Part shown: piece by piece, positions 4,401 through 43,602 of the stretch
How the letters are laid out: the number at the start of each line of letters is the position of its first letter
Numbering within the stretch: the first letter of the stretch is position 1
Source of the DNA: Rhizaria sp. SCN 62-66
Taxonomy: Eukaryota
Length of the DNA: 46,083 nt
Assembly (NCBI GenBank): GCA_001724265.1
Contig: MEDY01000242.1
Location: 1-46,083, forward strand
Direction: 5' to 3'
Translations under genes and position numbers: made by a program
Notes under the pieces: generated by a model
Told to the model about the DNA's origin: nothing
The model's input: the letters and a program-made list of their open reading frames with translations, nothing else
Databases searched by the model: none

Positions 4401-7400
4401 TCACTGCCACGGTCACGCAGCGTCGCTGCCATTGGCCGGGGCTGGGCTTGCTCCCGCTACGAGCACTCGCACTCGTGGTGTTGAGATCAGCGTTTGGGCT
4501 AGAGTTCGTGATCGTGAACGTCGAATCTGCGTCTGCGTCCGCATCAGTGTCAGTGGCGAGAGGTGCGCGCGCGCGTGCAAGCAGCAGTGCGACGTGGGAG
4601 GGCGGCCAGAAGCCCGGCACCGGCATAGGCAGCTGCACCAGCGGCACGTGCGCCGGCATCCGGCTCTGTGCAGCAGCTGGGCTGTGGGCGCAACCGTGAC
4701 TGCGCGCAGCAGCGGGGGCGAAGCGGCCAACGGTGATGTGCGCGACCTTAGCCCAGACGGACTGCGCGCCCGTGCCGGGGCCAGACACGGTCACGCTCGC
4801 AGCCGCGGCGGCTGCGGCAGCGGCAGCGGCAGCTGCAGCGGCAGAGGAGGAGTAGACGGCCGCGGTCTGAGTGCGCGCTAAGGGGCGCCGCAGCGCAGGC
4901 GCCGCAGCAGCAGCTGAGTCGACGGTAACAGCACTCGCAGTGGGCGCACTCGTCGTAGCGGTCGTCATTGCTGTTTTCGCGTCATCAATATCGCCGACGC
5001 GCGCTTGGGAAAGCGACCTCTGCGCAGTCTGCTGCTGCAGCTGCGGTTGTTGCTGCTGCTGCTGCTGCTGCAGGTGTTGCTGCTCTTTGAGTGCGGGTAG
5101 CGGCGGGCGCTCCGCGAGAACCGTGTCAAGTGTGGCATCAAGCAGCCCGCGCATGAAGGGCATCTTGTAGGCCTGAACCCAGTAGCGGTGCACGCTCTCC
5201 GCCTCCGACGGCGACATGCCCTGCGGCGTCAGAGTGTCTGCGCGCACGATGCCCTGGCCCAGGTTGGTGTTGATCTCCAGCAACACCGCCTGCAGCAGAG
5301 AAAGAAAGGCGAAATCAAGGGAAGTAGATAACGTTTGGGATGATGAGGGTATGAAAATAGCGTGTTCGTACAAAAAATAATAATTTGAATAATACAAAAA
5401 TTGAACTCGTTCATCTCAATACTCGTACCTTGTTTGCGTCAGTGTCGTAGAGAAAGTCGTAGCCGAGCATCTGAAAGCTCACACGCGCGAGACCATACGG
5501 GATCAGCGCGCCGTTTTCCAGCGCCAAGGCGACTGCGACACGAGTGAGAAAATAAAAATAGAGTTAAAACAAATAAAGTGGGTAAAATATGGTCGGTATA
5601 TGTGTGAGGATTTGGTCAGTAATACGGATTAGCAGATAAAGATTTCGTTTTCGTCAGGTCCAATGAACGTACCAGTGTCCCTGATGATGGGGACGAACTC
5701 TGCAAAACAGGCGTCGACGAAGGCGGGCGCCAGCACCTGGTTGCCAAGCCGGTGCGCGAGGTACTTGCTCACGGTCGCGTCGAACCCCGTCCCCGCGGGC
5801 TCGTAGGGCGCCTTGCTGTGGTACAGCTTGAACAGCCGGCACACGTGCAGCGAGTAGCCGCCGCCTAAGGCGACCGCGCTGCTCTCACCGCCGGCGCTCG
5901 CGCTATCGTGCAGACCATTGGTTGCGCTCGCGCTCGGAGCGTTGCCCGTGTTCACAGAGTTGTTGTTGTTGTTTGTAGCGACAGCGTCATACACAACTGT
6001 AGCGTAGACACGGAAGTGGACCTTGTAGAGCTTCCCGCGCATGAGCGGCGCGCCCGAGTCCGAGGGAAAAGCGGACCGCGCGCGCGCCGACACGTCCGCC
6101 GCAAGCCGCGCCGCGACCGCGGGCCCGTAAGTCTGCACCGCCAGCGCCGCGGGCGGCGGCAGCTGGCCCAAAGCGGCCGCAGTCGGCGACGGGGCCGCGC
6201 TGGACGCGGCGGAGCCCGTGGCGGAGCTCGGGGCCAAGCTGCCGAGGCCTGCAGTCTGCCGCCGGGGGCTATGAGAGCCAGAGCCAGCGTTGCGCGGGCT
6301 CGGGGCGGGAGCTGGGGCAGCAATGCTCTCGCTCACATGCGCTTCAGTCGCCGACGCACTCGCCGCCGTCGTTGTCGATGTTGTCGTCTAAGGCACAGAA
6401 GTCATCGTCTTGCTGCCATCAGACGCAGAAGTCAACGGCTTGTTGCCATCAGACGCAGGTTCCTTACTCTCAGGTGTGGGCGCTTTGCCTTGCGATGCGA
6501 ACGCCTCCGCAGGCGTGTTGACATCCAATCCGCGCAGCGGCGGGATGTAAAAAGGCTGCTGCTGTTGCTGTTGCAAGCCAAAAGCTCCGCCCTTGCCATT
6601 AGTCTTCTTGACCGCCCCAGCAGCAGCAGTAGCCGCAGCAGCACCACCAGCGACCTGCTGCTTCCCCGCTGCGCCGTTGGCATTGCCACCGCTGCCCGCG
6701 CTGCTTGTGTCCGCCGCAGCGGTGTCGACGAGCGCTGGCCGCAGCACGCCGTCGAGCGCGGTGTCGCCCGCGCCACCGCAGCGAGCGGGCACGCTCTCGG
6801 CCTTGGCCGTGGCGCCCAGGAGCTCGCCGGGCACCGAGAGTGGCGCCGCGACGTACTCCTGGACGACCCAGGCGGCGTAAGGCCCGCCAGGAATGGCGTC
6901 GGCGCCCGCGCGGCAATGCGCCAGCACTGACAGCGCCAGCCGCGGGTCGCGCGGAACGACCAGCACGCCGCGCTGCTGCTGGCCCAGCGAGGGCTTCAGC
7001 AGCACAAAGCCGCGGGACGGGCAGCCCCAGTCGCCGCAGCACGCGGTCGCCGCCGCTGTCGCCGTCGCCGCTGATACCGCCGCTGGTGCTGGTGCAGCTG
7101 TTGTGGAGTGACTGTGCACGGGGCAGTGCGCGGGCCTGTAACTGCGGCCGCGGCAATGCGCGGCGGGCATGGGCCGGAGCCCGAAGCGCTTGGGCACAGC
7201 GGCCTGGTTGGCGGCGCCGGGGTGCGTCAGCCACTGGCGCACCGTGCAGCCGTCGGCGTCGGTGTTCGCGCAAGCGCACTCGGCTGCAGCGGACGCAACC
7301 GATGCGGGCTGGGCAGCCGCGGCGGCGTCAGGCCTCGGGGAGGAGTCGGTGTTGTTGCTGTTGCTGTCATTGCTATGGTCGTTGCCAGTCTTGCCATCGC

Positions 7401-9533: not shown

Positions 9534-9564
<31 letters not shown>

Positions 9565-9822
9565 ACTGCTGGTTGGCGTAGCTGTCGTGCTGTTGAGGTG
9601 ATTGTTGCTGTTGTTGTTTGTGGGGCGGGGGGTCGCGGCAACGGGAACAGCATAAACGGCTAGCGGGGCAGCGGCAAAGGCCGCTGTGGACGCAGTCGCA
9701 GCCGATAAGCCGGTCGTCGTCGCGGCCGTCGCCACTGCTGCCGCGGCGGCGTGCGTTACTCCTCTCACGGCCACGGGGGCAGCTGCCCGGGGCTGCGAGG
9801 GCGCAGGGGCAGGCTGAGACAT
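1444..9822 (-). CDS. Tubulin-tyrosine ligase-like (TTL/TTLL, ATP-grasp) protein, ~2699 aa; exons 9822-5673, 5532-5429, 5289-1444; one in-frame TAG at 6390-6388
   Basis: TTL motifs occur in the expected order: LGDKVKM...YIPWT, LLKPSLGQQQRGVLVV, WVVQEYVAAPL, KVHFRVY, SFQMLGYDFLYD, LLEINTN. ORFs 10062-6388 and 6336-5629 are in the same frame across a TAG. Two GTACG..CAG introns (5672-5533, 5428-5290) join the last motifs in frame. Ends in TAA TAA. The start at ATG 9822 is inferred from where GC-rich coding begins; subfamily not assigned. Confidence 0.85.
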
Positions 9823-11316
9823 CGCTGCGTGGCTGAGGCTCAGTGAGGAAAAAAGAAAACACAAGGGCCAAGTCAAGCGACTGGCGTGGGGGAGCGCGCG
9901 GGCGGGCGAGGGGCACCGCCAAGGAGCAGCCTGTAGGGGTGATATCATAGCGGAATTGTTAATCGGGCGTCCCGAACGATGGTGTGAGTGTAATAGAGAA
10001 TAAACAAGGGAATAAATAGACTTACACGCCAGATATACAAGGTACATCACAAGTATTGACATGAGTAGCCGTTATGCGTTGCTGGAAGTGGGTTTTCACA
10101 GCATTGTGAGATGCTGTTTAAAAGCAGGGCATCCCACGATGCAGTTATGTATCTACTGATGCACAGAAGATGTTACAGACATAGGAATAGTAATTCGTAA
10201 AAGAAAAACTCAATTTGTTCAAGATAACCCAGCCATAGTGTCAGTGACGGAGCATGCATTGATATTTCGAACTCTCAAAACAGCCGTTCTGGTGAGCCAG
10301 TCTTGCCACACAACGGTCATGAGGTACAAGATTTCAGGAAACAGCGTGTAACATAGGATTTTTAACTTTTAATGGTTTCAAAACAACCGTTAACACACCT
10401 AAGCTTACAGTTTAAAGCATGCAGATCTATTAATTCCCAAACCCTGTTGTTGAATGGCGAGATATTCACTGTACGTGTGACGGAATGCCACTGTGTCAAT
10501 GGACAATATCAGCAGATTCGACCACATACTCGCAACAATACGGCCAAGATAACAGTATTGAGAAAGGCACATAGTGCCACGTTATTGTTATTTAACGGTA
10601 CTTGTTAATTAAGTTGAATAAGCCTTGTTTGATACTACAGGTAATATGAGAGCATCATTAGTCCATTTCGCTCAGTTTTACTATTCATGTTGCGATGCAA
10701 TCACAGTTAAAGCTTTTCAAGATAAAAAGGACTACGTGCCGCAAGAAATTTACATGAAATAAACTATGCGCGCTCAATTTCTTCAGATGCATTAGTATAC
10801 ACCCTTAGAGCCTGGTTATGCACTCACTTACACATCGTGTCACGTTGCGACTTCCGGTTCAAATAGAGTGCAGTTCATTGTAACAAGTGCTAACCAATAT
10901 GGAATATCGATTTTTATTCATATTCAGAGTACATGTTTAACAAAATAGACGAATTTAAGACAGAGAAAAATATGTCTTCAAAATATCGTGGTAACAGAGC
11001 AGAAGTGAACGGCGGTTGAGTAATCCTTTTAGTCGACCGACGGGCTGAGGGTTGTCACCGACCGTGGTGGTGTTGGGGGGTGGGCGACGTGGCTCTATAA
11101 TTGGCCATCAAGCTTCATGTGCGTGCTGCTCTAAAGAATGAAACTTTGCATGCAGCAGCTATAATGTAGAATTTTCTTTCTTTTCACTGACTTTTGTGAC
11201 TTTATCTCGATGAAATCAAAGTGAAATCCCTCATTTTAATCTCACGTGCGCCCTTCCTTCTGCTCCCTTACCTCGTCCACCTCTTCCCGTTCGTGCGCGC
11301 ACCAGAAAGAGCCCCG

Positions 11317-13434
11317 ATGCGCCTGTTCCTGCGCTACGTTGCTCTGGCCCTTCTGGCTGCGGCTGGCCTGGCGTCCGCCGCGCCTGGCTCGCACGTCGTG
11401 GACCACAGCGACGTCTTCGACGCCGACAACTACTTCTCCGACACCCCTGTCGTCCGCGAGTGCGGCACCGAGATGTCCATCACGGACGTCAACCCGGCCT
11501 TCGCGTACGCCACCGTGCCGACCGAGGTTGTGGTCACCGGCTGCAACCTCGGCGGCGGCGACTGGACGTCGACCGTGCACATGCTCAACGTCGCGTGCAC
11601 GGTGACCGAGGCCACCGAGACGCAGATCAAGTGCAAGACGGGCGTCACTGACACCGCGGCGGGCCTCGGCGCCGTCCAGGTCACGCGCGCCAACGACGAC
11701 ACGGGCGCGTCTGAGTCGGTCTCGCGCCGCAACATGTTCATGTACTATCAGCCCAAGGTGGAGTCTGTCCACCCCGCCACCGTCGACGCCAAGGCCGGCG
11801 CGACGATCCGCCTCGTCGTCTCGGGCATGTACTTCGACGACTACGAGGTCTCGTTCGCGGGCGCCAAGGCCACCAAGGTTGAGATGAGCGAGACGTTCAT
11901 GCTCGTCACGCTGCCCGAGGCCGGGCTCACCGTTGGCTCGCTCGACATCACCATTTCCAACGCTATGCTCACCACGCCCGTGCTCGTCAAGAGCCGCGCG
12001 CTCGCCGTCACGGACTCCGGCGCCGAGCCCTTCGTCAAGTCGCTGCTGCCGACCTGGGCCGTGGGCCCCGTGCCCGCGCCCACGTTCAAGCTCGTCCTGG
12101 GCCAGGTCCCCGCTGACGTTGCCGCAGTGTCCGTCACCTTCGCGGGCATCAAGGCCAAGAACGTCAAGCTCGACGCCGCGACTGGCGTCATCACCGGCGC
12201 CACCCCCGCGTGTACCGCGGACACGTGCCTCGGCACGCGCCTCGTGCTAGTCTCGCTCGACGGCAAGGAGGTCGGCTCCTGGACCTTCACCTACCTCGCC
12301 GGCCCCGTCACGGGCACGGCCAACGTCTACCCCGGCCCCGCGCTGCCGTGCAACTACAACCACGACATGCTCGTCACCTTCGCCGGCTTCGACGGCAACG
12401 TCCCCGCGCTCATCAAGCTTGGCGCCTGGGAGCCCGAGGGCGAGCACAACCTCGTCGTCGTCTCCAACGGCTTCCGCTTCGACCTGGCCGCCGCCGACGC
12501 GCCCTACGCCTCGGGCGCGGTGCAGCTCATCGACGACGCCGGCAACGTCGTTTACGACGGCGGCAAGTTCACGCACGGCCCCGCCGTCGACGGCGTCGCC
12601 ATCACGCGCGTCATCTCGAAGCCCATGGAGATCGGCGCCGAGACGGCCGTGACCTTCTACGGCTACGGCTTCACCGAGCACGACGTCAAGTCCTTTGTCG
12701 CCGTCGGCGCGCGCACCGCCGCCGCGGCCGCCGGGGGCAGCGCCGACGTGACCCTGGACCTCACCACTGCGGGCGTGACGCAGTCGCGCGCGACGGGCTA
12801 CCTGACCGACTGCTCGGACTTCGAGGACCGCTGCCAGGCGGGCTCCTTCGACGTGGCGCTCTTCAACTCCAAGAACGAGCGCGTCGCCGTCGTCCCGGGT
12901 GCCGTCGTGCTCCAGTACAACAACAACTTCGGCATCCTTGCGTCCTACACCTTCCTCGCCTCGGCCAAGGACAAGACTCTCAAGGCCGTCGCCGCCTTCG
13001 CCGCGGCCGCCGCCGAGCTGACTGCTGTGCCCGCCGCGCGCGTCGCCGCGGGCACAGTCGCGGGCGACACGTTCACGGTGCAGGTGCTTCCCGCGCACGG
13101 CTCCATCCAGCCTGACGCCGAGACTCTGGCCGACAGCATCGAGGTCCTGGTCGCGGACGAGCTCTCGGACCTGCACAAGAAGGTTGCCGGCGTGGCCACG
13201 GTCGTGGGCGAGCGCCAGACGCTGCGCCGCTGCGGCGCCAACGACTACCGCGTCAAGTGCGGCAACGACGACGGCGGCAGCGGCGGCGACGACCACACGT
13301 GGATCTACGTCTGCGTCGGCATGGTTTGCGCCGCCATCGTCGCCGGCTTCGCCATCTACGTCTGCAAGAAGCGCGCTGACCAGCGCCGCGCCGTCGGTAT
13401 CCTCGACGATCACTACTCGCAGATCAACGAGTAA
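11317..13434 (+). CDS. Type I membrane protein with tandem IPT/TIG (Ig-like) domains, 705 aa
   Basis: Signal peptide MRLFLRYVALALLAAAGLASA. Repeated IPT-like starts (ITDVNP..EVVVTGCNL; VESVHP..IRLVVSG; VKSLLP; ITRVIS..VTFYGYGF). One hydrophobic helix WIYVCVGMVCAAIVAGFAIYVC followed by KKR, then a short tail ending YSQINE. Strong C/G-ending codon bias; TAA stop; no introns seen. Confidence 0.85.
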   Translation: MRLFLRYVALALLAAAGLASAAPGSHVVDHSDVFDADNYFSDTPVVRECGTEMSITDVNPAFAYATVPTEVVVTGCNLGGGDWTSTVHMLNVACTVTEATETQIKCKTGVTDTAAGLGAVQVTRANDDTGASESVSRRNMFMYYQPKVESVHPATVDAKAGATIRLVVSGMYFDDYEVSFAGAKATKVEMSETFMLVTLPEAGLTVGSLDITISNAMLTTPVLVKSRALAVTDSGAEPFVKSLLPTWAVGPVPAPTFKLVLGQVPADVAAVSVTFAGIKAKNVKLDAATGVITGATPACTADTCLGTRLVLVSLDGKEVGSWTFTYLAGPVTGTANVYPGPALPCNYNHDMLVTFAGFDGNVPALIKLGAWEPEGEHNLVVVSNGFRFDLAAADAPYASGAVQLIDDAGNVVYDGGKFTHGPAVDGVAITRVISKPMEIGAETAVTFYGYGFTEHDVKSFVAVGARTAAAAAGGSADVTLDLTTAGVTQSRATGYLTDCSDFEDRCQAGSFDVALFNSKNERVAVVPGAVVLQYNNNFGILASYTFLASAKDKTLKAVAAFAAAAAELTAVPAARVAAGTVAGDTFTVQVLPAHGSIQPDAETLADSIEVLVADELSDLHKKVAGVATVVGERQTLRRCGANDYRVKCGNDDGGSGGDDHTWIYVCVGMVCAAIVAGFAIYVCKKRADQRRAVGILDDHYSQINE

Positions 13435-18174: not shown

Positions 18175-19599
18175 ATGGCCACTGACAGCGGACCACAGGG
18201 TCAATCAGTGTATGACTTTGGACAATCCAAATTTGCACTCGAAGGAGATGCTTTTCTGAGCAGTCTGTCCGATGAATTGTCTGGCAGGGGCATCTCGTCA
18301 ACAGCTCTGGCTTCCACCGCTCCCAACCCTTACAGGAGGGAGTCCTGGCTTCAGGTACGATTTTTTTCAAATTTCAACGACTATCCACACTATTCAAAGC
18401 TGCACACCCGCGTCACATCGCTTAGACCTCCAAATATCCCTCGGATCACCCCTCCACCTCGCTCACGTCCGTTACCACTTGCCTCCATTGCCTCCCTTGC
18501 TTCCCCAGGCTCAAATCTCGCGCCTGCTCGCGCTGCCCACCGTCGCCGCGCGCCGCCAACGCATGCTCTCGCTCTTCTTGCTTCCCGCTTTGTCGTCTTT
18601 GGCGTCCTCCCCCGCGCTCTGCGCCTTCGAGGTCGACGCCGCGCTCCGCGACCTTTCCTTCGCAACGTCCGCCGGGTTCTCGCCTGAACAGTCCGTGCTT
18701 GTGCTCTACATCGCCGCGCGCCTCCGCGCCGCGCTCGCGACGGGTGGCGGCAGCTCCGCGCCCGACGCCGCCGCGCTGGCGTTGCTGTTCAAGCGCATGG
18801 TCGCCGCCGCCACCGCCGTCCCCGCGCGCTACGTCGTCTCCCCCAGCAGCAGCAGCACCACCACCACCACCACAAGCAGCAGCGGTAGTCACAGTACTCA
18901 CAGTATTCACTCGCAGTCGCACGCGCTTGCGCTGGGCGCAGACCAGCATGGCGCGCACGGGCACTCGCACGCGTTCGCCGGCGGCGTCGGCCACGGCCAC
19001 GGCCACGGCCATGCCTCTGACTCGTCACACCCCGACCACCATCACCTACACAGTGACGCTGACGCGGCGTACACGTCTGCCGCGGCCGTGGCCGCCGCCG
19101 CCGCCGCCTCTGCCGCGGCCGCCGCGGACGCCGCGAGCGGGTTCCCTCCGTCGCAGCCGCACGCTCACCCGCGGTCGCTGGCCGCCGCGGTCGCCGCCGC
19201 CGCCGCCGCCGCCCGGTCCTTCCGGGCCGCGGCGGCCGCCACGGCTTCGGCCGAGGCTCTGAGCGCGCGCGCCAGCGCGGGCGGCAGCGGCGGCGGGCGC
19301 GCGTCGGCGCGCCTGCCCGCGCACCTGCTGTCGCTCACGGTGCCGCCCGTCGCTGCGCCCCGCAGCGGCAGCGCGCGCGCCGACACGAGCTCTGCGGGCG
19401 TTGGCGGCGCAAACGCGAGCGCAACCGCGGGGGAGAGCGCTGCGAGTGGTGTTGCGACGGCGGCCGCTGAGACCGCGCTGCCGCCGACGCTTACTCTGAT
19501 CGGTCCGCCCGCTCCCGGCTCGATCAGCAGCTCGAGCTCTCGTGGCTACAGCACATCCAGCAGTTCGCGCTCTGCATCATCATCGTCAGCGTCGTCGTT

Positions 19600-19635
<36 letters not shown>

Positions 19636-20905
19636 GTATATCTCTGCGACCTCTGCGTCCGTCTCCGCCGCCTCCGCGGCCACCGCGTCCGCCGCCACCG
19701 CTGCGCAGCAGGAGCGCTCGCGGCGCGCCGCCGCGGCCGCGCGCGCGCTGCACGTGCCAACCTTCGCCTGTCTCATGACGCCGGCTCAGGCGCGCGGACT
19801 GGTCGACCACGTAGCGGGCACCATCTTTGCCCGGCTCGCGCTGCTCAGGGCGCTCTACTCGCCGCGCTTCCGCCGACTCGCCTGCAGCAGTAGCATTATC
19901 GGCAACGGCAACAGCGCTGCGGTGAGTGCAGATAGCAAGCTTAACACGCCTGCGAACGGCAACAGCCCCGGGCTGAGCTCGGCACTGCTGCCGCCGGTTG
20001 AGACGGCGTCCTCCGCCGCCGGTCCCGGCCCGCGCGGGTGGCAGCCGCTCGCCGTCGCGCGAATGGTGCCGCAGCCCCCCGCCGACGCCAACGGCGCTGC
20101 GCGGAGCGCGGGCGCGCACTGCGACGCGACTGGCAGCGCTGCGCAGACCGCGGCTGCGGCTGCGAGTGGTCGTGCTATTAGTGTTGCCGGCACCACGGGC
20201 GGCTTGGCGGCGGCGCGTCGCGGCTTCGTCACTCCGTCAACAGTTCCCTCAAACGCCAACGCTCTGATCAATAACATCAACAGCAACAACCGCACTGCCG
20301 CCCGTGCGACGACTGCGGCTCTGGCGCAGACGGCGGCGCAGGGCCCGCAGCCGTGGTGTTCCCCCGCTGCGGCCGCCGTCGTGGCCCTGACCGTGGGGTC
20401 TGACCCCGCGGCGGCGGCGGAGGCCGACGTCTTCGCGTTCGAGGCCGCGTTCGCCATGCGCGCGCTGTCGGCTACTGCGCTGTACAACGCCGCCGTGCGC
20501 GACGCCTCCGCCCCCGCCCTCTCACTAGCGCAGCCATAGTCGCAGTCGTCCGCGTCTGACTCGGTGGACGCTGCGGCGCGCGCGCTGTCCGCGCAGCTGC
20601 TGCGGCGCGTGGCCTCCCGCGGCGACCCGCTGGCGGCGCCCGTGGCGCAGCTGCTGGGTGTGGGCGCAGCAGTGCACGGCACCGTCGCCGCCACGGCCGC
20701 CGCGGCGCACGCGGCCGCGCAGCGCGCGCTCGATGCGCGGGCCGCGGCGCTCGAGGCGCGGCTCGCCGCCGCCGCGGCTGCACTGGCGCAGGTGCAGGCG
20801 GAGCTCGCGCGCGCGCCGCCGCCCGCACCCGCGCCGGGGGCCGGAGGCAGGCGTGCGGCGGCGGCCGCGGCGGCTGCGGCGGCTGCGGCGGCGGAGGGAC
20901 GCTGA
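18175..20905 (+). CDS. CFAP119: CFAP119/CCDC189-like flagellar central-pair C1a-32 family protein, ~858 aa; exons 18175-18354 and 18509-20905; in-frame TAG at 20537-20539
   Basis: Family-like motifs recognised from memory: DLSFATSAGFSPEQSVLVL, LFKRMV, and TPAQARGLVDHVAGTIFARLALLRALY. Phase-0 intron 18355-18508 (GTACGA..CAG). The frame continues past the TAG into a coiled-coil-like tail (ALDARAAALEARL) ending at TGA. Confidence 0.65.
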
Positions 20906-21396: not shown

Positions 21397-24300
21397 TTAA
21401 CAGTGTTTGTAATATGTGTCTGACAGCGGCGCCGTGACAGTGGGACATTGCATGTTTAAGCTAGTGTCATTCGTGCTGTTGCTCAAGTCAGAGAACGCAC
21501 AGTTAAAATCCCACTCTAGCTCGCCCCAACCTCCTGCCAACACCACTGCGGTCGCTGCTGCAGCGGACTCTGCTTCCGGACCAGCATGGGCCGAGAGTGG
21601 CGGCGACGGCGACGACAGCGGTGACTGCAGCGGCGCCATTGACGGCTGTGGCGACGACGAAGAGACAATAGAAGTAATTGAAACTGCTTTGCTGCTCGCG
21701 CCAATGCCGGTCGCAGCCCTGGCGCTAAGACCAGTGACGCTCAAATTAGCGTTGCCTCCGGCTAGAGTGACTTTGTTCACACCCCTCGCTGTCATCGCAC
21801 CAGATACAGAGCTGGCAGTCAGCGCCGCAGCACTCGAGTCGATCGAATGCAGGTTAACGCCGTGGTCGTCAGACACTGCATGCAGCGGCGGCCTGGCGAG
21901 CAACACGCCGCTGGCGACGGCGGGGAGAGGGCGCCAGCTGTCAACGCCACCCCAAGCCCATCGCACAGCGCCAGTGCCCATATTCGAAGACGTGCTGCTC
22001 GTTGAGGATACCACGCCAAAGCTAGCGAGCTCGTACGCAGTGGCCGTTAGGGCGTCTCCGTCAGCGTCAGGCGCGTTATAAGTCGCGCTAGCTTTCGCTC
22101 CGTTTGTGGCTGCGCGTGGCGGCGGCGGGGCGTACAGCGCGTGCCCACCGGCCCAGTCGTCGTACACTGCGGTAATGAACGCAAAGGGACACTCGCCGCC
22201 GTCATGCAAGTGGCCGTGAACGCTCAGTCCGCCGTCGTTGTCATCGCCAAGAGCTCTTGCGCCGCCATTGCGGCCGTGGCGCCCGCAGTCACCGGTGGTG
22301 TTGCTCCACTCCCAGTGCTCACTGTCATTCGCGTAGTCACTGGTTGTGACCGAGTCAGACATCGTGCTACTGTTGCTTGGGACCGCGTTCCCACCATTGC
22401 TTATAGCGGCGTGTGGCGAGTCGTGGCCACAGTCAAGCAGCCCGTAGCTGCCAAGCTCACGGTCGCTCGACTCGCACGCGCGCCCAGGCTCAGGCCACGC
22501 CACACTGCTCCCGGCGCTGTTGTTCGCATTGATGTCTACATTGCCCCACAGTGAGCCCGCAGTGGTCTCGCACCGGTCCACGCGCACCAGCAGCCGCGCG
22601 CGCGCCCCCACAGCCCGCGCCGCCGCCGCCGCCAGCGCAGCCCGTAGTCCGCCTGCGCTCACGGACACGCCGGCCGCCGCCACAGCGGCGACTGCGCCAG
22701 CCGCGTTTCCGCCCGCCGCAGCCGCCGCGGCGCGGATTTCGTCAAGCGAGGGCCCGAGGCTCATTTCGACTGCAATGGCGTCTTCCTGGGCCTCGCGCCA
22801 GAGCCGCCGGCGCCGAGCTTGTTGCACCCACTGCGGCACGCCTAACGCGCCCAGCGCCGCCTCGGCCTCGGCAGCCGCGCCGCGGGCCTCAGCGCCGTCG
22901 CGACCGGCAGCCGCCGCGAACGCTGCTGTCGCGCGGCGACTCGCGTCGTCCGCGTCGCTGTCGCTTTCGCTGCTGTCAGCGTCGTCGCCGGCAGGAGGGC
23001 TGTGAGCGGCCGTTGCTGCTGAAACGTTGTCAGACTGACTGAGCGGCTCCACATGCGCGACATTGCGAGTGTTAGTGCGCGAGCGGCGAGCCCAGGTTTT
23101 GGACGCGGATGCTAGAGCGCTACGCACTTGCAATAGCTCCCGCGCTGCATCTGGCGCTGACCCGGTCACAATGGATGCCCCATTAGCACCGCTCGCACCC
23201 GTAACAGTGCTCGCAATGCCGTTATCGGAATAGCTAGTCGCAGACTGTGTTTCACGCATGCGTCGCAGCGTTGCACGGGCCCATTTTGCGCCCGCAGCAA
23301 ACGCTGCCTTGCGCCGCTGCAGCGCTGTGGCGAGCACCAGTGCGCCGTGCGCCGTCACGCCGCAGCGCCGCAGCCAGAGCCCGCGCAGCCGTGGCGCGCC
23401 GAGCGCCGGCCGCACGCGCGGGGGCCGAACTGCGCCGGCGCCCACAGTCCCCGCGCCCGCTGCCGCCACCGCCGCCGCTGCTGCTGCTGCTGTGGCTGCG
23501 GAGGCCGGCGCGTGGTCAGCGGAGGAGTGGCCGGGCGTCAGCGCGGCCGCGAGCGCGGCGAGCCCGGCGTTGCGGACGTCGTGGCCGTCGAGCCACAGCT
23601 GCTGCAGCGAGCCGTTGGCGATCAAACCGCACGCCAGCGCCGCGGCGCCGGCGGGACCAAGCACCACGGAGTCGGTCACGGTGACGCTGGGGGCCAGGCG
23701 CGCTTGGGTCGCGCTCACGGTCACACTCGCGCTCGCGCTATGACTGTTCGCGTTAGCAGAGGGGCGGTTGAGGTCGAGCCGGTGTAACGAGCACTCTGGC
23801 CGCGCGAGCCAGGACGCGAACAGGCGCGCGGCTACGGGGCCTGTGTTGTTGCCGCCGGCTGCGAGCGCGCGCAGACGCGGCGCGTGCGCTAAAGCGGGCG
23901 CCAGAGTCGCCCACGCGCTCTAGGGCAGCGCGTTGCCGCGCAAAGTGATCGTACGCAGCGCAGGCGCGCTCTGCAGCGCGAATGACATGGCGTGCAGCAG
24001 CGGCGGGGGCGGCTGCTGCGCGTTCGCTGCAGCTGACGAGACATCCGACAAGGCTTCGTTCGGCACTGCACTAGCAGGGCCAGCGCCGTTCGCATCAGAA
24101 TTTGACTGGGGAATAGAGCAGAGCAGCGCACCGAGCAACATGCGGTCGAGCCTGAGCTCAGTCAGCGACGCGCTGGTGACGACGCCGCGCCAGAGCCCGC
24201 GCAAGCGGTGCGCCGAAGCGCCGTAAAACGCTGTCATTACGGTCGCCACAGTCACCGGCGCTGTCGCGCTCGGACCAACAGCAGAGTCCGCGTTGCTGGA

Positions 24301-27300
24301 CGCAGTCGCATTAGAGCTGGTACCGCTGTTGATTGCGGCGTAAATGTCGGCGTCGCAGCCGAACATGTTGCCGCTCAACACCAGCGTCCGCAGCCGCGGC
24401 GCGCACGCAACCAGGTTGTGGAGCGACTTCGACAGCGCTGACAGCGACGGAGGCGGCGGCGACACTGCTGCGGTAGCCGCGCCACTCGCACCGCCAGCTG
24501 CGATGCCGGCGGCTGCGACAGATGTCCCCGCTCCAGCTGCTGCTGTCGCCACTGCCGCAGCCGCTGCCGCGTGCGCGCGCGCAATGACCGCGGTGACTTC
24601 AGGGGTGTTGTCCGCGAGATCGAGCGTTTCGAGCGCGAACGTCGGTCCGCGCCTGCGCGCGGCGTCGCCGAGCGCCGCGACCACAAGCGCAGCGCCCGCG
24701 GCCGAGAGGCGGCAGCGCGCGGCGCGCAGCGCGGCCAGCCCGGGCAGCGCGGCAAGGGCCGCGGCGGCCGCGGCGGGCAGCGCGTCGAGCGCGCAGTCGG
24801 AGAGCAGCAGCCGGCGCAGGCCGCGGGAGGGCGGCGACGGGGACAGCGGCAGCGCGGAAGGCGAGAGGAGGGCGCGGAGGAGGGCGTCCGCCGGCGCAAG
24901 AGTTGCGGAACTTAAGGTAGAGCCAGCAGCAACAACTGCCGAGCCTGATGCTGCAGAAGGAGGCAAATCTCGCGCTGTAATAGTGAGACCGCCATGGTCA
25001 CTATCAAGCTCACAGTCGCTAGCATCATCGCTGCCACAGTCGCCATCGCCAGTATCATCATCATCATCGTCATTAGTACACTGAGAGCGAGAGCGGCTGC
25101 CGCCCCATTTCGTCTTGCTTTCATGCGCATGCGAGAGAGCTAAAGCGGTGACGACGCCGAACAGAGGCTCGGTGCCCGCGGTGGCCACGGTCACCCTGCG
25201 GCCCGCGGCGGTAGTGACCGTGAGCACGCTGCCTGCGGTGCCAGAGCCGCCGCTGGCGCCGCAGCCGCTGAGGGCGCCCAGGGCGGCTGCGGCCGCGTCC
25301 AAGTCAGCGATGGCGCCAGTGTCGCCCACAGCCACTCCACCAATTTGCGACTGTTTATGTGACTGTGTGAGAGCAAGGGCACGTGCAATAGCGGCCGAAG
25401 TTGAGCCAAACAAAGAGGCCGGCTGCGTGGGGCTGCTGTCAGACACGCTATTCAATGTTGCGCTCGCGACAGTGTTACTTGCACTGTTGGTCTCACTTCC
25501 ATCTTCAAGCAGAGAGGATAATGTTGCAGAAGCAGCAACATCAGCGATGCTTGATGCCGACCTCGGTGAGGGCAAAGGGGCGCACGCGGGGTCAGCCGCT
25601 GCGCCCGCCGCCATGGCCGCTGCTGCTAGCGCCGCGGTGACCGAGCTCAGCACCGCTGGGGACACGTGGGACCCGCGCAGGTCGAGCGTGCTGACACGCA
25701 CTCCGGCGGGACCTACGTTTGCGACCCGCACTTGCTGATGCTGTTGCTGCTGATGCCGCTGATGTAGCGGCGCATGTGCAAGGAATGTCGTTGCGGTGTC
25801 CGTGATGTCTTGGAAGCTCAGCCGGTCCGCCGCGAACGCGCTCTGCACAGCCTTCGCGTTTGCAGCGACCGCTGTACTGCTGCTGTTGCTGCTGGAAACA
25901 GAGGGCTGGATGAGCTTCGGTCGCTCACCAAAGTCAAGCCGCGTGACTCCGGGAAGCAGCGCCAAGACTTCCCTCGCCCATTGCCGCGGCAGCGCTGGGG
26001 ACCGGGGCAGCATCACTGCGGGCAGCGACGGCGGCAGCACGTGGCGTTGCCGCGTTACAGTGCTCGCGGTGGGGCTAGACACAGCGATGATGGGTGTCGC
26101 AGCGGCTGCAGCAAGCGCTGTCACAGCGGTGATGAGCTTGTGCTTAAGCTGCAACAGCGCGGCCTCGGCGCGCCGGCGCTCTGCCTCGTTGCCGCTGGCC
26201 ACGCTAGCGTTGCTATTGCTCGAGCGAGAAGGACCGAACGCGGCCACGTGCAGCGCAGTGGCCTCGGCCTGCGCGCGCGCGACTGCTGCAGTAAGCCCGC
26301 CACCACCAAACATTCCGCCTTGCGTCGCGCCCGCGGCAGAGTTGGGGGTGGAAGATCCGTCGACTGCGGGCGTCAAGGCAAGCAGCGCGGCGGTCGTGGC
26401 GGCTGCGGCGGAGGCAGTGACAGCAAGCGTGTGCGTCAAATAGGCGCGGGCGGCGAGAGCGCGCGCGTGCGGCACTGCACGTGTAAGCACGCTGTTATCT
26501 ATCATTGCCAAAGCAATGGTTGTGCTATGATAGGCAATCGCGTTGCAGTCTGGCTTGAAAATCCACAAAAGCGGGTTATCAGCCTGTGCGACAGACTTTG
26601 CGCTCGTCGCAGTGTTGTTTGCGTCTGCGCGGGCGTTGCTATTGTTCGCAGCAACACTCGGTGCATACGCCCACGCGCGCAGTCGCAATAACCACCTTTT
26701 GTTGCCGTCATAATTGGCGCACCGCTTTGAAGCGACAGACACTGCACTGCACACGCGCGCGGCCGCCAGAAGCCAATAGCGCGCAGCTGCAGCCTCACAC
26801 AGCGGCGCACGATCAACAAGAGTAGTAATATTGCTACTTTGTGGAGCGGCGGCGCGTTCTAATGCTGCAACCACAGTCGGCGGAGCGCAGGGAAAGCATA
26901 ACGCAGTCGCGGCATCTCCTGCTGTGGAGAGCAGCAGCGCGCATGCACGCGGCAGGGTGAGCGCAGTTGCGCTTGTGTTTGATGTTGCCGTTGAGTTAAA
27001 AGCTGTATACTGGAGCGTTGTGAGGAGAGAAACGGCGGCACATGCGATGGCAGCGGTTGCGCCCCAGGCTCCAAGGTACGCACAGTCACGCATCACCTCC
27101 GCAAGCAACACAAGGGCGCGCTCACGGTCCCGGTCCGGGTCGCGGTCGCCGCCGCCGCTGCTGCTGCTCACGGTCGCAGAGGGCGGCGCGCGCTCACGGC
27201 TGTTGCTGCCGCTGATGCTGCTCACCTCCGCTGCGGGGTCGAGGAGGGCGCGGGCACAAAGCCAGTGCGGTAGCAGCGCACGACACGCAGCGCCGACAGT

Positions 27301-29760
27301 CGTCGTGCTTGTGTTCGCGCTACTATTGGCGTTGGGGTTAGTAAGTGTGACAATAGGGCCATTGCTGATGCTGTTGGTGGTAGTAAGAGGATCCCTACTG
27401 TTACGCAGTCCCCACAGCAGCGCGGTCCAAAGGGCACGGCTAGACACACCAGGCAACACCGACTGCGATGGCGGCGGTGCGTGCGCGTTTGACTGTGCCT
27501 GTGAATGTGACTGCAGGTGCAAGGGCCCAAGGTTCACAGTGCAGGCAGCGGCACTCTCACGCTCAGCGTTCGCACTCGCGGTGACACTGGCAGTGCTGCC
27601 GCTGCGCACGCCCGTCACCGCGGCGGCAATGGCGGCCGCGGCAGACATCGCTGGAGGCGGGGCGACCGCGGTGTTGGACAGAGCAACGGAAACAAGACGC
27701 TCGAGCAAGCCCATAGGCGCATTGCTAACTGATGTTGACCCGGGCTGCGCGGAAGCCAAGCCGCTGAGCGGAGATGTTAGGCCGCCACTAGGAGAAGGGG
27801 ATAACCAGCCTGGAGCCAAGCTGCCGCTGTTTCTCCGGGAGTCGCTCACGAGAGAGCTTCCACGCGCATTGTCACAGGCAGTGTACGCTTGCGTGTCTGT
27901 GTCTGTGAGAGATTCGACCGGAGAGCGCCGCACGCGCGCGAGCGAGCGCACGAGCACCGCGGCTTGCAGCGGGCTGATAGACACGCAAAGCGCCTCCGGG
28001 AGCGAGAAATCACGGTTGAGGCTCGTGCTACTCGTAAAACTGTTCGTGCCAGCGTCAGCCTCAGGCTGCACGACGCGACTGCAGCCGCGACTGCCTGTGC
28101 CGCCGCTGGCCGCGGCTTTCTTGCTGTTGTTCGCACCCGATGCTGCCGCTGCGTCAGCCGTGGCCTTGGCCTGCAGCTGCTGCGTCAGGATCATTTCCAC
28201 AGGCACGATCGCAGGCACCGCGGATACAGCGGGGAGCGGCGGTGCGGCTACGCCACCGCGAGAGCGCAGCGCTGTCGCAGCTGACGACACGACAGGCACG
28301 GTTGACAGCACGACGGGCCGTTCTTTGACAGTGGACGACAGCATAGATGCGGCTTTCGACGAGGCGCTGGAGCTAGACTCGGACGTGTACGGTGCATGTT
28401 TTTGCGCGAAGCTGTTGCTAAAACCATCTGGATTGGCTGGGTTGTTATTGATATCGAAGCTGGGCTCAGATGTGACCCATCCCCACGCGCCCGCATTGCC
28501 GCCCGCACCAGGCCCGATCTCGCCCGCACTGGCGGTGTACGACTCATTCAGCCCACTGCCCGCACCGGCTGCAGCGGCGGCAGAGTCGGCGCCCTCAGCA
28601 GCAGTGCTTGCGATGGCGTTAACGGGTCGGTACGTGCGCGCCGCCCGCTGCGGTTGAGGGTTGTACACGGACGCGTCGTACACCACCGTCAACGGCGCGT
28701 TATCACTGTTGCCCCAGCCGCCGCTGGCGCCGGTACCGCCGCTTGCAGTATTGGTGCTGGCATTTGCGACGGCGGGGCGGGCGCGGCGGCCGGCGGTCGG
28801 CGTCGCGCTCACGGAGGACGCGCCTGAGCTCGTGCCTGCATAGGCGCCCAAGTCAGGAAGCCCCAGGGCTTGACTGCCGGCGAGGGCGGCCTGACTTCCG
28901 TGGAAGACGAGCGACGCGGACGCTGCCGCGCTCGCAGCTGTGTTGTACAGAGGAACGTGGTTGCGCACACGGGGAGTCGTCGACGGCTCACGGTCACGGT
29001 CGCGGTCACGGTCAGGGTCGCGGCTACGGGGTGTCGCAAGCGTGGCTGAAGCAGCAGCGCGCGCAGTCGCAGCGCCGGTGCTGTAGACGCTGCCGTTGTA
29101 CTACGTACCGTCATACGGAGCGCAACTGCTGCTGCTGCTGCTGGATATGACTTGCGATGTAGCGCTTTGAGGAGTCGCGGCCGAGACGTATTGCATGCCA
29201 CTGTACTGAAAAACGCTACCCAGCGCCACCGGGCCGTAGTGCTGCTGTTGAGGCTGCGCCAGAGGCCGCCGGGGCGTCACCGCGGCGCCGCCCGCGTGTA
29301 CAGCGTAAGCTTGCTGTAACTGTAAGTGCTGCTGCGAGGGGGTCAGCGTGAGCGCCGCCATCGAGACGAGCGGCGACGCGCCCGGAGCAGCGGCAGGTGT
29401 GGATGATGGGAAAGATGACGACTGCACCAGCGAGCTGGAGCTGGCGCTCGAGCTCAAACTGGCGCTCGAGCTCGAGCTTGTGCTGGAGAGTAGCAGGGGC
29501 TTAGCGGGGGTCTTGTACCGCGGTGTGAAGCCCAGTCCGCCCGCGCCGGTCCCATACGGCAGCGCGGGGCCCACCGGGAGCGCAAACCGCGGGACAGCAG
29601 GCAGCGCTGCTGATGCCGCTGCTGACGAGGCTGACGATGAAGTTGGTATTGATGAGCCGAACGCGCTGTGCTGGGACGGGGCTGTGCCGTGCCTGTGCGG
29701 GGTCGTTGCAGTGTTACCAGGCGCAGGGGCAAGGTGAGCGGAGCGACCGGAGCCCTGCAT
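21397..29760 (-). CDS. Giant leucine-rich-repeat (ribonuclease-inhibitor-like) protein, ~2787 aa, apparently intronless; in-frame TAGs at 29103-29101 and 23922-23920
   Basis: Three co-framed ORFs (29910-29101, 28968-23920, 23724-21397) are separated only by TAG. LRR units: VSTLDLRGSHV, LRRLLLSDCAL, LETLDLADN, LRTLVLSGNMF, LTELRLDR, LRTITLRGNAL, LHRLDLNR, LQQLWLDGHDV, LRGLWLRRCGV. TAA stop. Start at ATG 29760 is inferred. Confidence 0.8.
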
Positions 29761-30198: not shown

Positions 30199-30887
30199 AT
30201 GAGCATCACCTTCACGGTCGAGTTCGGGTACGTCATCATCTATCACCCTAATATCACATCAATATGGCATATGCACTGATTCAACCGATCTAACCATTTC
30301 GTTTCTTTGCTCCCCTCTACAGCGGCGGCCTCGAGCTCCTCTTCGGCCGCGTCAAGTCCCACACCGTGACCCTGCCCCTGTGCGCCGCCTCGGCCGACGC
30401 CGCCGACGCTGCTGCGGATGCTGCGGGCGCGGCCGACGGGCTCCCGCTCTCAGTCGTGCTCGCGCACATGCGCGACAAGATGCTTACCGAGCGCGCTGAG
30501 CTCTTCATGCAGGAAGAGACTGTGTACGTTGCCGCAGTCGCTATATCGCGCAGCTTCTACAAACATGGCTTGCGAGATTCTTTGACATTGTGTTTAGGCG
30601 CATTGACCAGCCCTATGACGTTTTAGATCGCTACATGTCTATATTTTATTGAGTCGGGCAACGAGTGAGTTTTATACGGATTAACCTTGCTACCTCCCGT
30701 CCACTCACCTTACTCTTCTTCCATTTCAACTTGGTCAACTTTTATCTCAATATATGCGCGCGCCTGCAGTCGCCCCGGCATCCTTGTGCTGATCAACGAC
30801 ACGGACTGGGAGCTGGAGGGTGGCATTGCGGCCCGCATTCGCGACGGAGACAACCTTGTCTTCATTTCTACGCTGCACGGCGGCTGA
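30199..30887 (+). CDS. URM1: Ubiquitin-related modifier 1, 115 aa; exons 30199-30227, 30323-30523, 30770-30887
   Basis: Spliced product [18 protein letters not shown]...[31 protein letters not shown]...FISTLHGG matches the URM1 signature with a C-terminal GG. Two phase-2 GTACGT..CAG introns; TGA stop. Confidence 0.97.
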
Positions 30888-31654
30888 AGCGGCCACATGG
30901 GCGTGACATGAATCCCTTCAGAGTGGCTAATGGAGCAATGCATTGACAGTGCAGTGCAGTTCGGGTCAAGTGTGGGAACAATTGAAGTTTTGTATAACCA
31001 TTTCATTTCATACATTGAACTTTTCATCTTTGTAGTTCTTAGCACAATTTGACACCCAACCAATAAATCGATGCAACAGTACTTGCGATTCACTACGAGG
31101 ATTCGTATGATTTGATTCTTTGTTGATCAGTATTATCGTTGTATTAAATCAGATTATGAAATCAATGTATGGTATCTTATATTGTTGAACAGTACGTTTT
31201 GCGGGATGTCGAAGCGATGCTTTGAAGCACTACGTTGCCATCATTGTAAGCGTGTGACAAAGACTCGAAGTGTAAAAGACAACGAATGTGACACGGTGCT
31301 TGAGAGGAGATAAGAGATGAACACACACAGAGACATACAAGAACCAAAGGTTAGACTGAGGCAGCGAGGACAAACAGAAGAAGTGCGTGTGCAGTTAAAT
31401 AGCAACGACAACCCGCGGGTGGGACATACTGTCACGTGCTTTAAGCTATCGTAAAGGGATAAAGTAATGAGGCAGCAGCATCAACAATACAACCCCAAAA
31501 AAGAAAACAGGTAAACACAATTTACAGATAAAACATCGATTTGGCGGGGTATACCTATTATAGAGGCATTGTAATTACAATTAGGTTTCGTTACAACATC
31601 TTACCCGCGTTAAAAAGAAAAGATGAACGTGTTTAAACCAAAAATAAAGAGGGC

Positions 31655-36864: not shown

Positions 36865-36925
<61 letters not shown>

Positions 36926-38449
36926 CCACTGCGATGCTGGTTGGAACAGCCCCGTGAGGGCCCCGGCTCTGGCGCCGAGTGACGCCCCCACCAGGTCGCC
37001 GGCCGAAGCGTAGCCCGCGAGCGCGGCCAGCTGGGCGAGCGCGGCAAGGTCGGCCTCCGAGATCTCGGATATGGCGGCGCCAGAGCCAGTCCCGGTGTCA
37101 GCGTCAGTGCCGGGGCCAGGGCCAGAGTGCCCTGCATGTGCGTTAGCGTGTTCGCCGCTTGTGCCAGTGTCAGTGCCAGTGTCAGGGTCAGTGTCGAGAT
37201 GAGAAAGTGTTGATGTATGCGCTGGTGTGTCTGCCGCCGCGACGAGGCCCATGCTGCGCGCGACCTCGAGCAGCTCGCGCTTCTTCACATCGAGCGCGGC
37301 CAGGCGCGCGCCCAGCGCTGCTGCGGCCGCCGCAGGGGAGAGAACTAGTGTAAAGGAGTCGTAGGGTGAGTCTTCGCAACTGCTGACGCTCTGCGCATCG
37401 CCGTCGTCGTCATCATTGTCGTCATTGCAGTTGGCGTTGCCGCTGCAGGCACCGTTGTCATCGCAGTTGTCGGTCATCATGGTCTTGTCGGTCTTGGTGT
37501 TGTCATCGGTCCGCCCGTTCGCCTAATTCACTGTGATGTCGTCATTGCCGCCGTTGCTACTGTCATTGCCGTTGTCGTTGGCGTTGGCGTTGCCGGTGGA
37601 ATTGCTCGTATTGCCACTCTCACTGCTCCGCGCCTACCGCGCGCCAGTGTCCGCAGCAGCATCAGCGCCAGCGCCAGTACCAGCGCCAGCTCCAGCGCCA
37701 GCGCCAGTGTCAGCGCCAGCGCCCGCGCCAGCGCCAGCAGCGCCCGCAGTGTGGCTGTAGCCGACAGAGCCGGTGAACGACCCAATGGCGGCGGCAGCGG
37801 CAGCCGCGGCAGCAGCGGCGGCAGCGGCAGCGGTGGCAGCAGAGTTGGCGTCAGAGGTGGTAGAGATGGTCGTGGTGCTGCTAACACTCTACAGCGCCTG
37901 CGCCTGCGGCTGCTCCTGGCCTGAAGTCGGCGTCTGCGTCTGCGTCTGAGACTGGGGCTGAGGCTGAGTGGACGGCTGCTGCTGTTGCTGCTGCTTGGCC
38001 GCCATCAGAATCGCCTGCGTCTGCGCCTCCGCTTGGGCGAGCGCCTGCACCTGCTGCTGCTGCAGCTTCTGCTGGTAGTCATACTGGCGCATCTGCGGTA
38101 GCGCTGGCACTAGCGCGCTCACGCCCGCGCTCCCGCCGGTCACGCCGCTCGGCGCAGCGCCACTGAGGCTGCCGACAGCGCTGCTGTGGCCGCCGCTGGC
38201 GCCGGGGCCGAAGCTGCTGCCGCTCAGTAGAGCGCCGTTGGTACCGACGACTCTGCCCGGGCCCAAGCCGGTACCCACGCCCGCTCCGGCACCCGAGACC
38301 CCGACGCCCGCGCCAGAGCCGGTGACCGTGGAGGCCGAGGACAGCGACATGGTGAGCGCGGGCGACGCCGTCGGCAGCGAGGGGTAGGGGTATGCGGCGC
38401 CGTAGGTTCCAGTCGCATGCGTCTGCGGACCGGTGGCTGAGGCGCCCGA

Positions 38450-38481
<32 letters not shown>

Positions 38482-42300: not shown

Positions 42301-43602
42301 ATGATGAGTCTTCGCAAGGCTATCGCTGGCGCTGCCCGCGTTGCGTCCAAGGCAGGCGTCACCGCCGTTCCTGTTCCCGCCCGCGCCCTGTCGTCGAGCA
42401 CCGCCGGCCTCACCACGGCCGAGATCATCGCCGACCTCCCCAAGGAGGTACGTTCAAGCCCACGCAAGCGTCACTACTTTGCAATGACATATTATTAGGC
42501 TACCGCACGCAATATATTCACTATTTCACTTATTTTATCTCCCTATGCCGCTCATTCTCCTCCTCTCCGTAATCTTGGCCTTCGCTCTATATGTCCGCTT
42601 GTTTGCTTGCTTTCTCACTCCCGATAACAGAAGATGAACCTCGTGACCGCGATCAACAGCGCCATCGACGTCGCGATGAAGACGGACCCCACTGCCTGCA
42701 TCTTTGGCGAGGACGTCGCGTTCGGCGGCGTTTTCCGCGCCTCGGTCGACCTCCGCGAGAAGCACGGCAAGGACCGCGTGTTCAATACCCCGCTGTGCGA
42801 GCAGGGCATCATGGGCTTCGCCGTCGGGCTCGCCGCCGAGGGCGCCACGGCCATCGCCGAGATCCAGTTCGCGGATTACATTTTCCCCGCGTTCGACCAG
42901 ATCGTCAACGAGGCTGCCAAGTTCCGCTACCGCAGCGGCAACCAGTGGAACGTGGGTCGCCTCACCATCCGCACGCCCTACGGCGCCGTCGGCCACGGCG
43001 GGCACTACCACTCGCAGTCGCCCGAGGCCTACTTCACGCACACGCCCGGACTCAAGGTCGTGGTGCCCCGCGACCCCGTTCAGGCTAAGGGCCTGCTGCT
43101 GGCGTCGATCCGCGACCCGAACCCCGTGGTGTTCCTGGAGCCCAAGGTGATTTACCGCGCGGCGTCGGCCGAGGTGCCCGTCGGCGACTACATGCTGCCG
43201 CTGTCGCAGGCCGAGGTGATGCAGGAGGGCACCGACATCACGCTCGTCGGCTGGGGCACCGAGCTGCGCGTGATCCAAAAGGCCGCCGACAAGGCCAAGG
43301 CGGAGCACGGCATCAGCTGCGAGATCATTGATCTGCGTACGCTGCTGCCCTGGGACTATAAGACCGTCTGCGACTCGGTCCTCAAGACCGGCCGCATGGT
43401 CGTCGCCCACGAGGCCCCCGTCACGTCCGGTTTTGGCGCCGAGATCCTCGCCACCGTGCAGCAGAAGTGCTTCTACTCGCTCGAGGCGCCGCTGCGCCGC
43501 GTCTGCGGCTACGATGTCCCGTTCCCGCTCGCGTTCGAGCCCGTGTACATGCCCGACTACCTCCGCGTTTACGACGCCATCATTGAGACCGTCAAGCCGT
43601 AA
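42301..43602 (+). CDS. BCKDHB: Mitochondrial branched-chain 2-oxoacid dehydrogenase E1 beta subunit, 372 aa; exons 42301-42447 and 42631-43602
   Basis: Motifs [69 protein letters not shown]. The N-terminus resembles a mitochondrial presequence (Arg/Lys/Ala/Ser-rich, RALSS). Phase-0 intron GTACGT..CAG; TAA stop. Confidence 0.97.

Follow-up and report, generated by a model that had tools for sequence, protein, structure and literature searches.

In-frame TAG codons very probably read as sense, most likely as glutamine, in the nuclear DNA of an uncultured, GC-rich eukaryote

The contig MEDY01000242.1, deposited under Rhizaria sp. SCN 62-66 (assembly GCA_001724265.1) and analysed here over its entire 46,083 bases (the window), carries nine recognisable genes on both strands, and seven in-frame TAG codons are spread over four of them. 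We hold with high confidence that TAG is a sense codon in this organism, because the TAGs stand in frame, are absent from the gene ends, are reproduced in other assemblies and in RNA, and lie in sequence whose guanine plus cytosine (GC) content is maintained across them. Glutamine (Gln), proposed for these codons in a preliminary description drawn from the sequence alone, remains more likely than any other single reading. The argument from sequence context that had led to it fails when tested, however, and the caveat in the same description that the identity of the residue is not proven was correct.

The gene at 18272..20905 on the forward strand (ATG at 18272, 877 codons, TGA end) illustrates the situation. 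Positions 20528-20551 read gcg cag cca TAG tcg cag tcg tcc, that is A-Q-P-TAG-S-Q-S-S in frame with the ATG, exactly as had been described; the TAG at 20537..20539 is codon 756 of 877, the GC content is 0.75 before and 0.79 after it, and a drop in GC content, from 0.88 to 0.47, occurs only past the TGA at 20905. The other six TAGs are found on the reverse strand. One (6388..6390, codon 1225 of 1477, context SVP-TAG-TTT) lies in the gene at 5629-10062 and two in the gene at 21397-29760, namely 29101..29103 (codon 220 of 2787, DGT-TAG-YNG) and 23920..23922 (codon 1947 of 2787, RGNALP-TAG-SAWATLAPAL), the latter inside an RNI-type leucine-rich repeat. The gene at 31655-41104 holds the remaining three, at 37889..37891 (codon 1072 of 3149, QAQAL-TAG-SVSS), 37634..37636 (codon 1157 of 3149, GAR-TAG-ARSS) and 37523..37525 (codon 1194 of 3149, TVN-TAG-ANGR). 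Six of the seven sites had been listed in the preliminary description, and the surroundings quoted for the reverse-strand sites among them, QEQPQAQAL-TAG-SV (37889), VN-TAG-ANG (37523), AR-TAG-AR (37634), VP-TAG-TTT (6388) and DGT-TAG-YNG after FQYSG and GMQYV (29101), are all found in the translations, as are PQSQPQPQSQS and PQPQSQTQ with ordinary Gln codons; the seventh site, ALP-TAG-SAW at 23920-23922, had been overlooked.

Frame 0 of eight of the genes (11,882 codons) contains no TAA, seven TAG and no TGA codons, and the other five frames of these genes contain 16-59 TAA, 32-95 TAG and 87-216 TGA codons each. The terminal stops of the nine genes are TAA in seven and TGA in two cases, with no TAG among them. 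Upon reading through TAG the pieces fuse into frames of 877, 1477, 2787 and 3149 codons, the two longest of which are interrupted by TAG alone. The reading frame is preserved across all seven TAGs, and codon-position GC and regional GC also continue, with a GC content of 0.57-0.79 in the sequence past the internal TAGs compared to 0.31-0.47 in the 150 nucleotides (nt) past the nine terminal stops. No paralogous copies of the TAG contexts were found in the window, allowing up to 6 mismatches in 24 flanking bases.

The TAGs recur in sequence that has been assembled elsewhere. Logan contigs of other runs, here termed X2 and X3 (DNA), X4 (DNA, from another study) and X6 (polyadenylated (polyA) RNA), were compared with the window; the comparison spanned six of the seven TAGs, with 6388 outside, no listed piece over 37889 and no cover of 23920 by X4. 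The X2 and X3 contigs span 20537, 23920, 29101, 37523 and 37634 with no differences in the covering pieces, a single piece (36896-37781) running over both 37523 and 37634 without change, and X4 likewise spans 29101 unchanged. An X6 polyA RNA contig (20368-20788) runs over TAG 20537 without a joint and is unspliced there, and RNA depth is zero only in the sole wholly intergenic bin, 30673-31339. The strain represented by X4 and X6 differs from the window by 12 nt inserted behind 22515 (in X4 only) and by 3 nt missing at 38598 (in both runs), in-frame changes that fit coding constraint on these low-complexity genes.

Protein databases hold the truncated counterparts. Fragments derived from ENA and JGI assemblies stop exactly at TAGs 20537, 23920 and 29101: P0121 and P0122, strain variants of a 755-residue fragment that are one residue apart, both stop at 20537, the JGI fragment P0124 stops at 23920 and P0126 at 29101. 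Searches scored the best 8000 candidates of low-complexity sequence, so that misses are possible; within these 8000, the 877-residue protein had one match, a self fragment, and shorter lengths of the 2787-residue protein had three, all of them self fragments. Exact look-ups of ten guessed fragments found two and no read-through variant, and no read-through variant was present among the cluster members of nine further fragments. The six TAG sites other than 23920 have no alignable homologues.

A further TAG distinguishes the sister strain from the window. At 25363..25365 on the reverse strand, codon 1466 of the gene at 21397-29760, the window as well as X2 and X3 possess the Gln codon CAG, and the change G>A at 25365 that turns it into TAG is found in X4 DNA (depth 6.2/6.2, 55 nt away from the end of the contig) as well as in X6 polyA RNA (depth 8.6/8.6, two contigs). 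Of the 37 listed coding differences 27 are transitions and 10 transversions, and the other 36 consist of 20 synonymous and 16 nonsynonymous changes. The CAG/TAG polymorphism favours Gln, as a silent change is the likelier kind; on a rough estimate the difference is about three times likelier under Gln than under any other residue. The support is weak, since such an interchange of UAG and CAG between close relatives was seen in a single case.

Weighing the commonness of reassignment to Gln, this polymorphism and the repeat column at 23920, we consider glutamine the most likely residue, with about an even chance of being correct. Cytoplasmic translation would read UAG as a rare sense codon, with UAA, the preferred terminator, and UGA ending translation. 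Gln would be delivered by a transfer RNA (tRNA) derived from tRNA-Gln with the anticodon CUA, or by the ordinary tRNA-Gln(CUG) as a near-cognate, and the release factor eRF1 would have lost recognition of UAG. Among nuclear reassignments, that of UAR or UAG to Gln is described as the commonest (PMC11687900), and near-cognate readthrough in organisms with the standard code is described as mediated by tRNA-Gln (PMC13192750). As had been stated before, CAG is the dominant Gln codon (335 CAG versus 63 CAA in the nine genes). The column at 23920 accepts polar or small residues, a point in favour of Gln, and the local motif favours Q at two sites only, Q being found in 3 of the 10 other occurrences of P?SQ and in 3 of 6 of ?Y[S/N/V][G/S].

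A number of observations weigh against this reading. Nine gene ends are too small a sample to exclude that TAG also acts as a stop. The eRF1 gene does not lie in the window, and neither ARAGORN nor Rfam finds a tRNA there that could be the TAG decoder. Eleven of the differences between the runs and the window are unlisted, two of them in the RNA contig over 20537; by the tallies per run none of these is T>C, although the TAG itself may carry one of A>T, G>C and G>T. The polymorphism is a single event, CAG>TAG is the commonest mutational route to TAG whatever its meaning, and the base change in X6 sits 6 nt from the contig ends. Furthermore, the surroundings of the TAGs do not resemble those of glutamine codons. 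Within 10 residues to either side the seven TAGs have 0, 2, 0, 0, 4, 0 and 0 Gln neighbours, so that the Gln-rich surroundings claimed in the preliminary description are missing at five of the seven sites; seven true Gln sites are equally Gln-poor in only 3.6% of draws (P 0.036), whereas sets of any other residue reach the Gln count of the TAG sites in 10-44% of draws. A naive-Bayes classifier based on the composition within 10 residues, which places Q first for 81% of sets of seven true Q sites, ranks Q 20th of 20 at the TAG sites, where N, T and S take the lead and E comes seventh; nearest-neighbour likelihoods, which have no resolving power, place Q third to sixth of 20. The contexts are rich in Thr, Ser, Asn and Asp rather than in Gln, mostly disordered and polar. 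Most true Gln sites in these proteins belong to polyQ runs, which expand by CAG slippage, so that the composition test takes away the support claimed from context without excluding Gln.

A further counterargument comes from 23920, the only TAG in a structured, alignable domain, which ribonuclease inhibitor structures match at E 1.6e-12. An exhaustive search for homologues of the RNI-type repeat retrieved 123 proteins at E<=0.001, two of which are self fragments, and 102 of the 121 non-self homologues align across the TAG. The residues in this sole semi-conserved column are D31, E17, S11, A10, G6, P5, T5, V3, K3, H3 and N3, with one each of Q, I, C, M and R and zero L, W, Y and F. With Q in 1 of 102 homologues versus E in 17 and D in 31, the column favours Asp, Glu, Ser and Ala and, taken at face value, Glu over Gln. 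This position varies, however, and the register of the repeat is ambiguous; the repeats of ribonuclease inhibitor show S, A, E or G at the position of the TAG, and the protein's own repeats, as read from the translation rather than computed, have A, A, E, C, P, P, N and A.

Glutamate, inserted by a CUA tRNA derived from tRNA-Glu, is the alternative that survives best, although we regard it as unlikely. It draws on the same column, the position after L-G/T in the RNI-type repeats, and on the composition classifier with its seventh place for E and last place for Q. UAG reportedly encodes Glu in the ciliate PL0344. Reassignment of UAR to Glu is described for peritrich ciliates and for Blastocrithidia (PMC11687900, PMC12153298). 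On the other hand, glutamate rests on a single column of ambiguous register that varies across the protein's own repeats, and the strain polymorphism is CAG/TAG and not GAG/TAG. Glu is not, to our knowledge, among the near-cognate insertions at UAG, which counts against it if the change is young.

Less likely again is another residue, be it Ser, Asp, Ala, Tyr, Lys or Leu. Ser and Ala account for 11 and 10 of the 102 residues at 23920, and N, T and S lead the composition classifier. In the cases described, UAG means Leu in the rhizarian exLh (PMC5304391) and in three phyllopharyngean genome bins, and UAR means Tyr in Mesodinium (PMC11687900). A literature search turned up no nuclear precedent for Ser, Asp or Ala, and with most of the candidates the strain difference between CAG and TAG would amount to a radical replacement. 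All seven TAGs are in polar, mostly disordered sequence, and none stands at a conserved hydrophobic Leu position. As L, Y and W, like F, are found in 0 of 102 homologues at 23920, Leu, Tyr and Trp are disfavoured and unlikely as the TAG residue.

A shade more doubtful is a reassignment at an early stage, in which eRF1 would have ceased to recognise UAG, the codon would be read by near-cognate tRNAs without a dedicated CUA tRNA and the inserted residue would be mixed, mostly Gln with some Tyr or Lys. In yeast, near-cognate tRNAs at UAG insert Gln, Tyr and Lys. Only positions that are permissive, disordered or at the surface would then tolerate the codon. Such a state fits with the extreme rarity of TAG and its absence from the two most biased genes, with the location of the TAGs in polar low-complexity sequence or at a variable repeat position, and with the ERO1 gene of a relative, described below, that ends with KDEL-TAG.

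That TAG retains its stop function, either as a leaky stop or with a dual, context-dependent meaning, we judge improbable. The rarity of TAG (7 in about 12,000 codons), the mere nine gene ends available, the use of TAG as a stop in the relative and the dual-meaning codes described for some ciliates (PMC11687900) are compatible with it, but up to 2,567 coding-like codons follow a TAG in frame, the C-terminal parts of four long genes lie behind TAGs and none of the nine genes ends in TAG. Three TAGs within 123 codons of one gene would, under partial readthrough, leave very little full-length product, and the additional TAG of the sister strain falls midway through a gene of 2787 codons and shows up in the RNA of that strain.

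Very improbable, finally, are TAGs that remain untranslated, be it as errors of assembly, as nonsense mutations of genes in decay or as parts of introns: the window does have an intron, 29101 does sit in the splice-like GTACGTAG, and about 63% of random single-base nonsense changes lead to TAG, which gives P of about 0.04 for seven of seven (counted by hand from the codon table), but the TAGs recur across independent assemblies and strains, no frameshifts, TAA or TGA accompany them, their flanks are GC-rich and coding-like, the frame is kept everywhere and the RNA contig is unspliced over 20537. The standard of comparison is the one recognisable spliceosomal intron of the window, at 42448..42630 on the forward strand in the gene for the 2-oxoisovalerate dehydrogenase beta subunit (GTACGT...ACAG, 183 nt), with a GC content of 0.44 compared to 0.50-0.84 in the flanks of the TAGs. 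The motif in which TAG 29101 is embedded matches the 5' splice motif of an intron in the related contig L001, and GTACGT, with 3 occurrences in about 36 kb of coding sequence versus about 6 expected by chance (a hand estimate), is not enriched. An intron at 29101 was considered and rejected; the nearest acceptor-like site would define an interval of 28 nt, which disrupts the frame, and what follows downstream is GC-rich coding sequence with an RDPDRDR motif also present elsewhere in the protein.

With respect to the age of the change, the frequency of TAG is 0.58 per 1000 codons (7 in 12,088), corresponding to at most 1.7% of the Gln codons if it encodes Gln, and the two genes whose codon bias is strongest (GC content at third codon positions (GC3) 0.93-0.94) have no TAG. 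A relative is available in the contigs L001 and L002, which stem from one organism with a GC content of 52%; its dehydrogenase is 81-82% identical to that of the window, with which the contigs are not syntenic. A metagenome scan for DNA of relatives yielded L001 and L002 only, a scan of prokaryote genomes found only bacteria at up to 68% identity and a scan of viral contigs found nothing. The ERO1 gene of L001 (7109-8932, reverse strand; Pfam E 1.5e-93) ends in ...KKDEL-TAG followed by two more TAGs in frame, and TAG is a true stop in L001. This KKDEL end is a C-terminus of the endoplasmic reticulum (ER)-retention type. Neither L001 nor L002 contains tRNAs. As TAG is rare, is absent from the two most biased genes and still ends a gene in the relative, the reassignment looks young. 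Seven of the nine window genes end in TAA despite a GC3 of 0.77, and this preference suggests selection for the TAA terminator once TAG was lost. UAA is also described as the preferred stop in exLh and Iotanema (PMC5304391) and in phyllopharyngean ciliates (PMC11687900).

The window alternates between a GC content of about 0.70 within the long open frames and 0.45 between them; the GC content of the organism is 65%, and the GC3 of 0.77 applies across the window genes. Most of the genes encode very long, low-complexity proteins rich in Ala, Ser, Thr and Gln. Pfam recognises an IPT/TIG-domain protein, a PQ-loop protein and the 2-oxoisovalerate dehydrogenase E1 beta subunit, and in addition an Atg3/Atg10-type E2 domain at the threshold of Pfam; no Pfam family is found for any of the four TAG-bearing proteins. 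For the 755-residue fragment (18272-20536, forward strand) protein-atlas features are nearest to clusters of PF14769 (CLAMP), at 0.79-0.81 and below the bar of the tool, a lead without Pfam support at E<=10. CLAMP is a subunit of the flagellar C1a complex. The label 'TTL' given to the gene at 5629-10062 in the preliminary description could not be verified, as the C-terminal 548 residues have no Pfam match even at E<=1; strings resembling ATP-grasp/TTL are discernible by eye only. The first 40 codons annotated for this gene are low in GC, and its true start may be located further down.

In the 3149-residue protein, the C-terminal part (31655-33000, reverse strand) carries two basic GRP-bearing motifs, KRKRGRPPKPRP and RRPRGRPRIHP, which we take to resemble AT-hooks, and several hundred residues of His-Gly/His-Ser repeats follow after them. 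The TIG-domain protein (11317-13434, forward strand; GC3 0.94) appears from its sequence to have a hydrophobic N-terminus and a C-terminal hydrophobic stretch. It is matched letter for letter on six contigs from three sources, the longest of which has 220,695 bases, so that a much longer assembly of the locus exists. In the dehydrogenase beta gene (42301-43602, forward strand) the exon upstream of the intron, 42301-42447 with 49 codons, looks like a mitochondrial presequence. The relative possesses an intron at the equivalent place of its dehydrogenase gene (L001, 258-1703), and the gene calls for the dehydrogenase in databases (319-322 residues) omit the first exon.

DNA near-identical to the window occurs in data sets from bioreactors, wastewater, microbial fuel cells and activated sludge, from seven studies, with a polyA RNA library among them. 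A dehydrogenase tree of 119 rows places the window in a clade consisting of environmental sequences only, and not with the named oomycetes, labyrinthulid, amoebozoans, opisthokonts or chromerid. The window comes from the nuclear genome of a GC-rich eukaryote that is uncultured and poor in introns and that the dehydrogenase tree leaves unplaced.

Reassignment of UAG alone, as far as described, occurs in the rhizarian exLh, where it means Leu, and in Iotanema spirale, where it means Gln (PMC5304391), as well as in phyllopharyngean ciliates, with Leu three times in one clade and Gln twice (PMC11687900). The closest in outline is the fornicate Iotanema spirale, with UAG for Gln and UAA and UGA as stops; as in the window, UAG is the sole reassigned codon and a minor one (about 8% of the Gln codons in Iotanema, at most 1.7% here), termination relies mainly on UAA, and the closest relatives seem to have retained the standard code (PMC5304391). 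The assignment in Iotanema was based on many conserved columns and a likelihood test (PMC5304391), whereas the window offers seven sites, of which a single one lies in a semi-conserved column, and that column speaks for residues other than Gln. Unlike Iotanema, the organism of the window is aerobic, as it has a mitochondrial branched-chain keto-acid dehydrogenase, has a GC content of 65% and belongs to no named group.

Among the phyllopharyngean ciliates, Hartmannula sinica and Trochilia petrani (UAG for Gln) and three TARA bins (UAG for Leu) are described with UAG alone reassigned, as here, and share with the window a strong preference for UAA and recent, repeated changes beside relatives with the standard code (PMC11687900). 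In these ciliates, internal UAG occurs in 78-91% of the genes and makes up 6.5-32% of the codon family (PMC11687900), compared to four of nine genes and at most 1.7% here. CUA suppressor tRNAs are known from the same ciliates (PMC11687900), whereas the window itself is free of tRNAs, and with its long GC-rich genes and coding runs of up to 3149 codons its genome is not ciliate-like. In exLh, a member of the Sainouroidea, all in-frame stops are UAG and genes end in UAA (56) or UGA (15), a pattern as in the window; UAG is rare in highly expressed genes there and absent from the two most biased genes here, and the relatives of both retain the UAG stop (PMC5304391). The two differ in that 82 of 86 hyperconserved UAG positions in exLh are Leu (PMC5304391), as opposed to 0 of 102 Leu in the column of the window and polar sites throughout. 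Recoded phages (TAG for Gln, 'code 15') use the same codon and the residue proposed here; unlike these, the window stems from a eukaryotic nucleus, as its spliceosomal intron, its polyA RNA and its protein families of eukaryotic type show. A search of the full texts of papers found no such code reported for a GC-rich wastewater eukaryote.

The window very probably adds one more lineage to the known UAG-only reassignments, with Gln as the likeliest residue ahead of Glu and others. Gene callers cut these genes at TAG, and the proteins found for them in databases are all fragments of this kind. Codes that split UAG from UAA are rare, being described for one rhizarian, one fornicate and a few phyllopharyngean ciliates (PMC5304391, PMC11687900), and they show that the two codons are mechanistically separable. 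The case reported here would add an unplaced, GC-rich lineage that is represented in several wastewater data sets, polyA RNA among them, and its low use of TAG together with a relative that keeps TAG as a stop makes it a candidate for a reassignment at an early stage.

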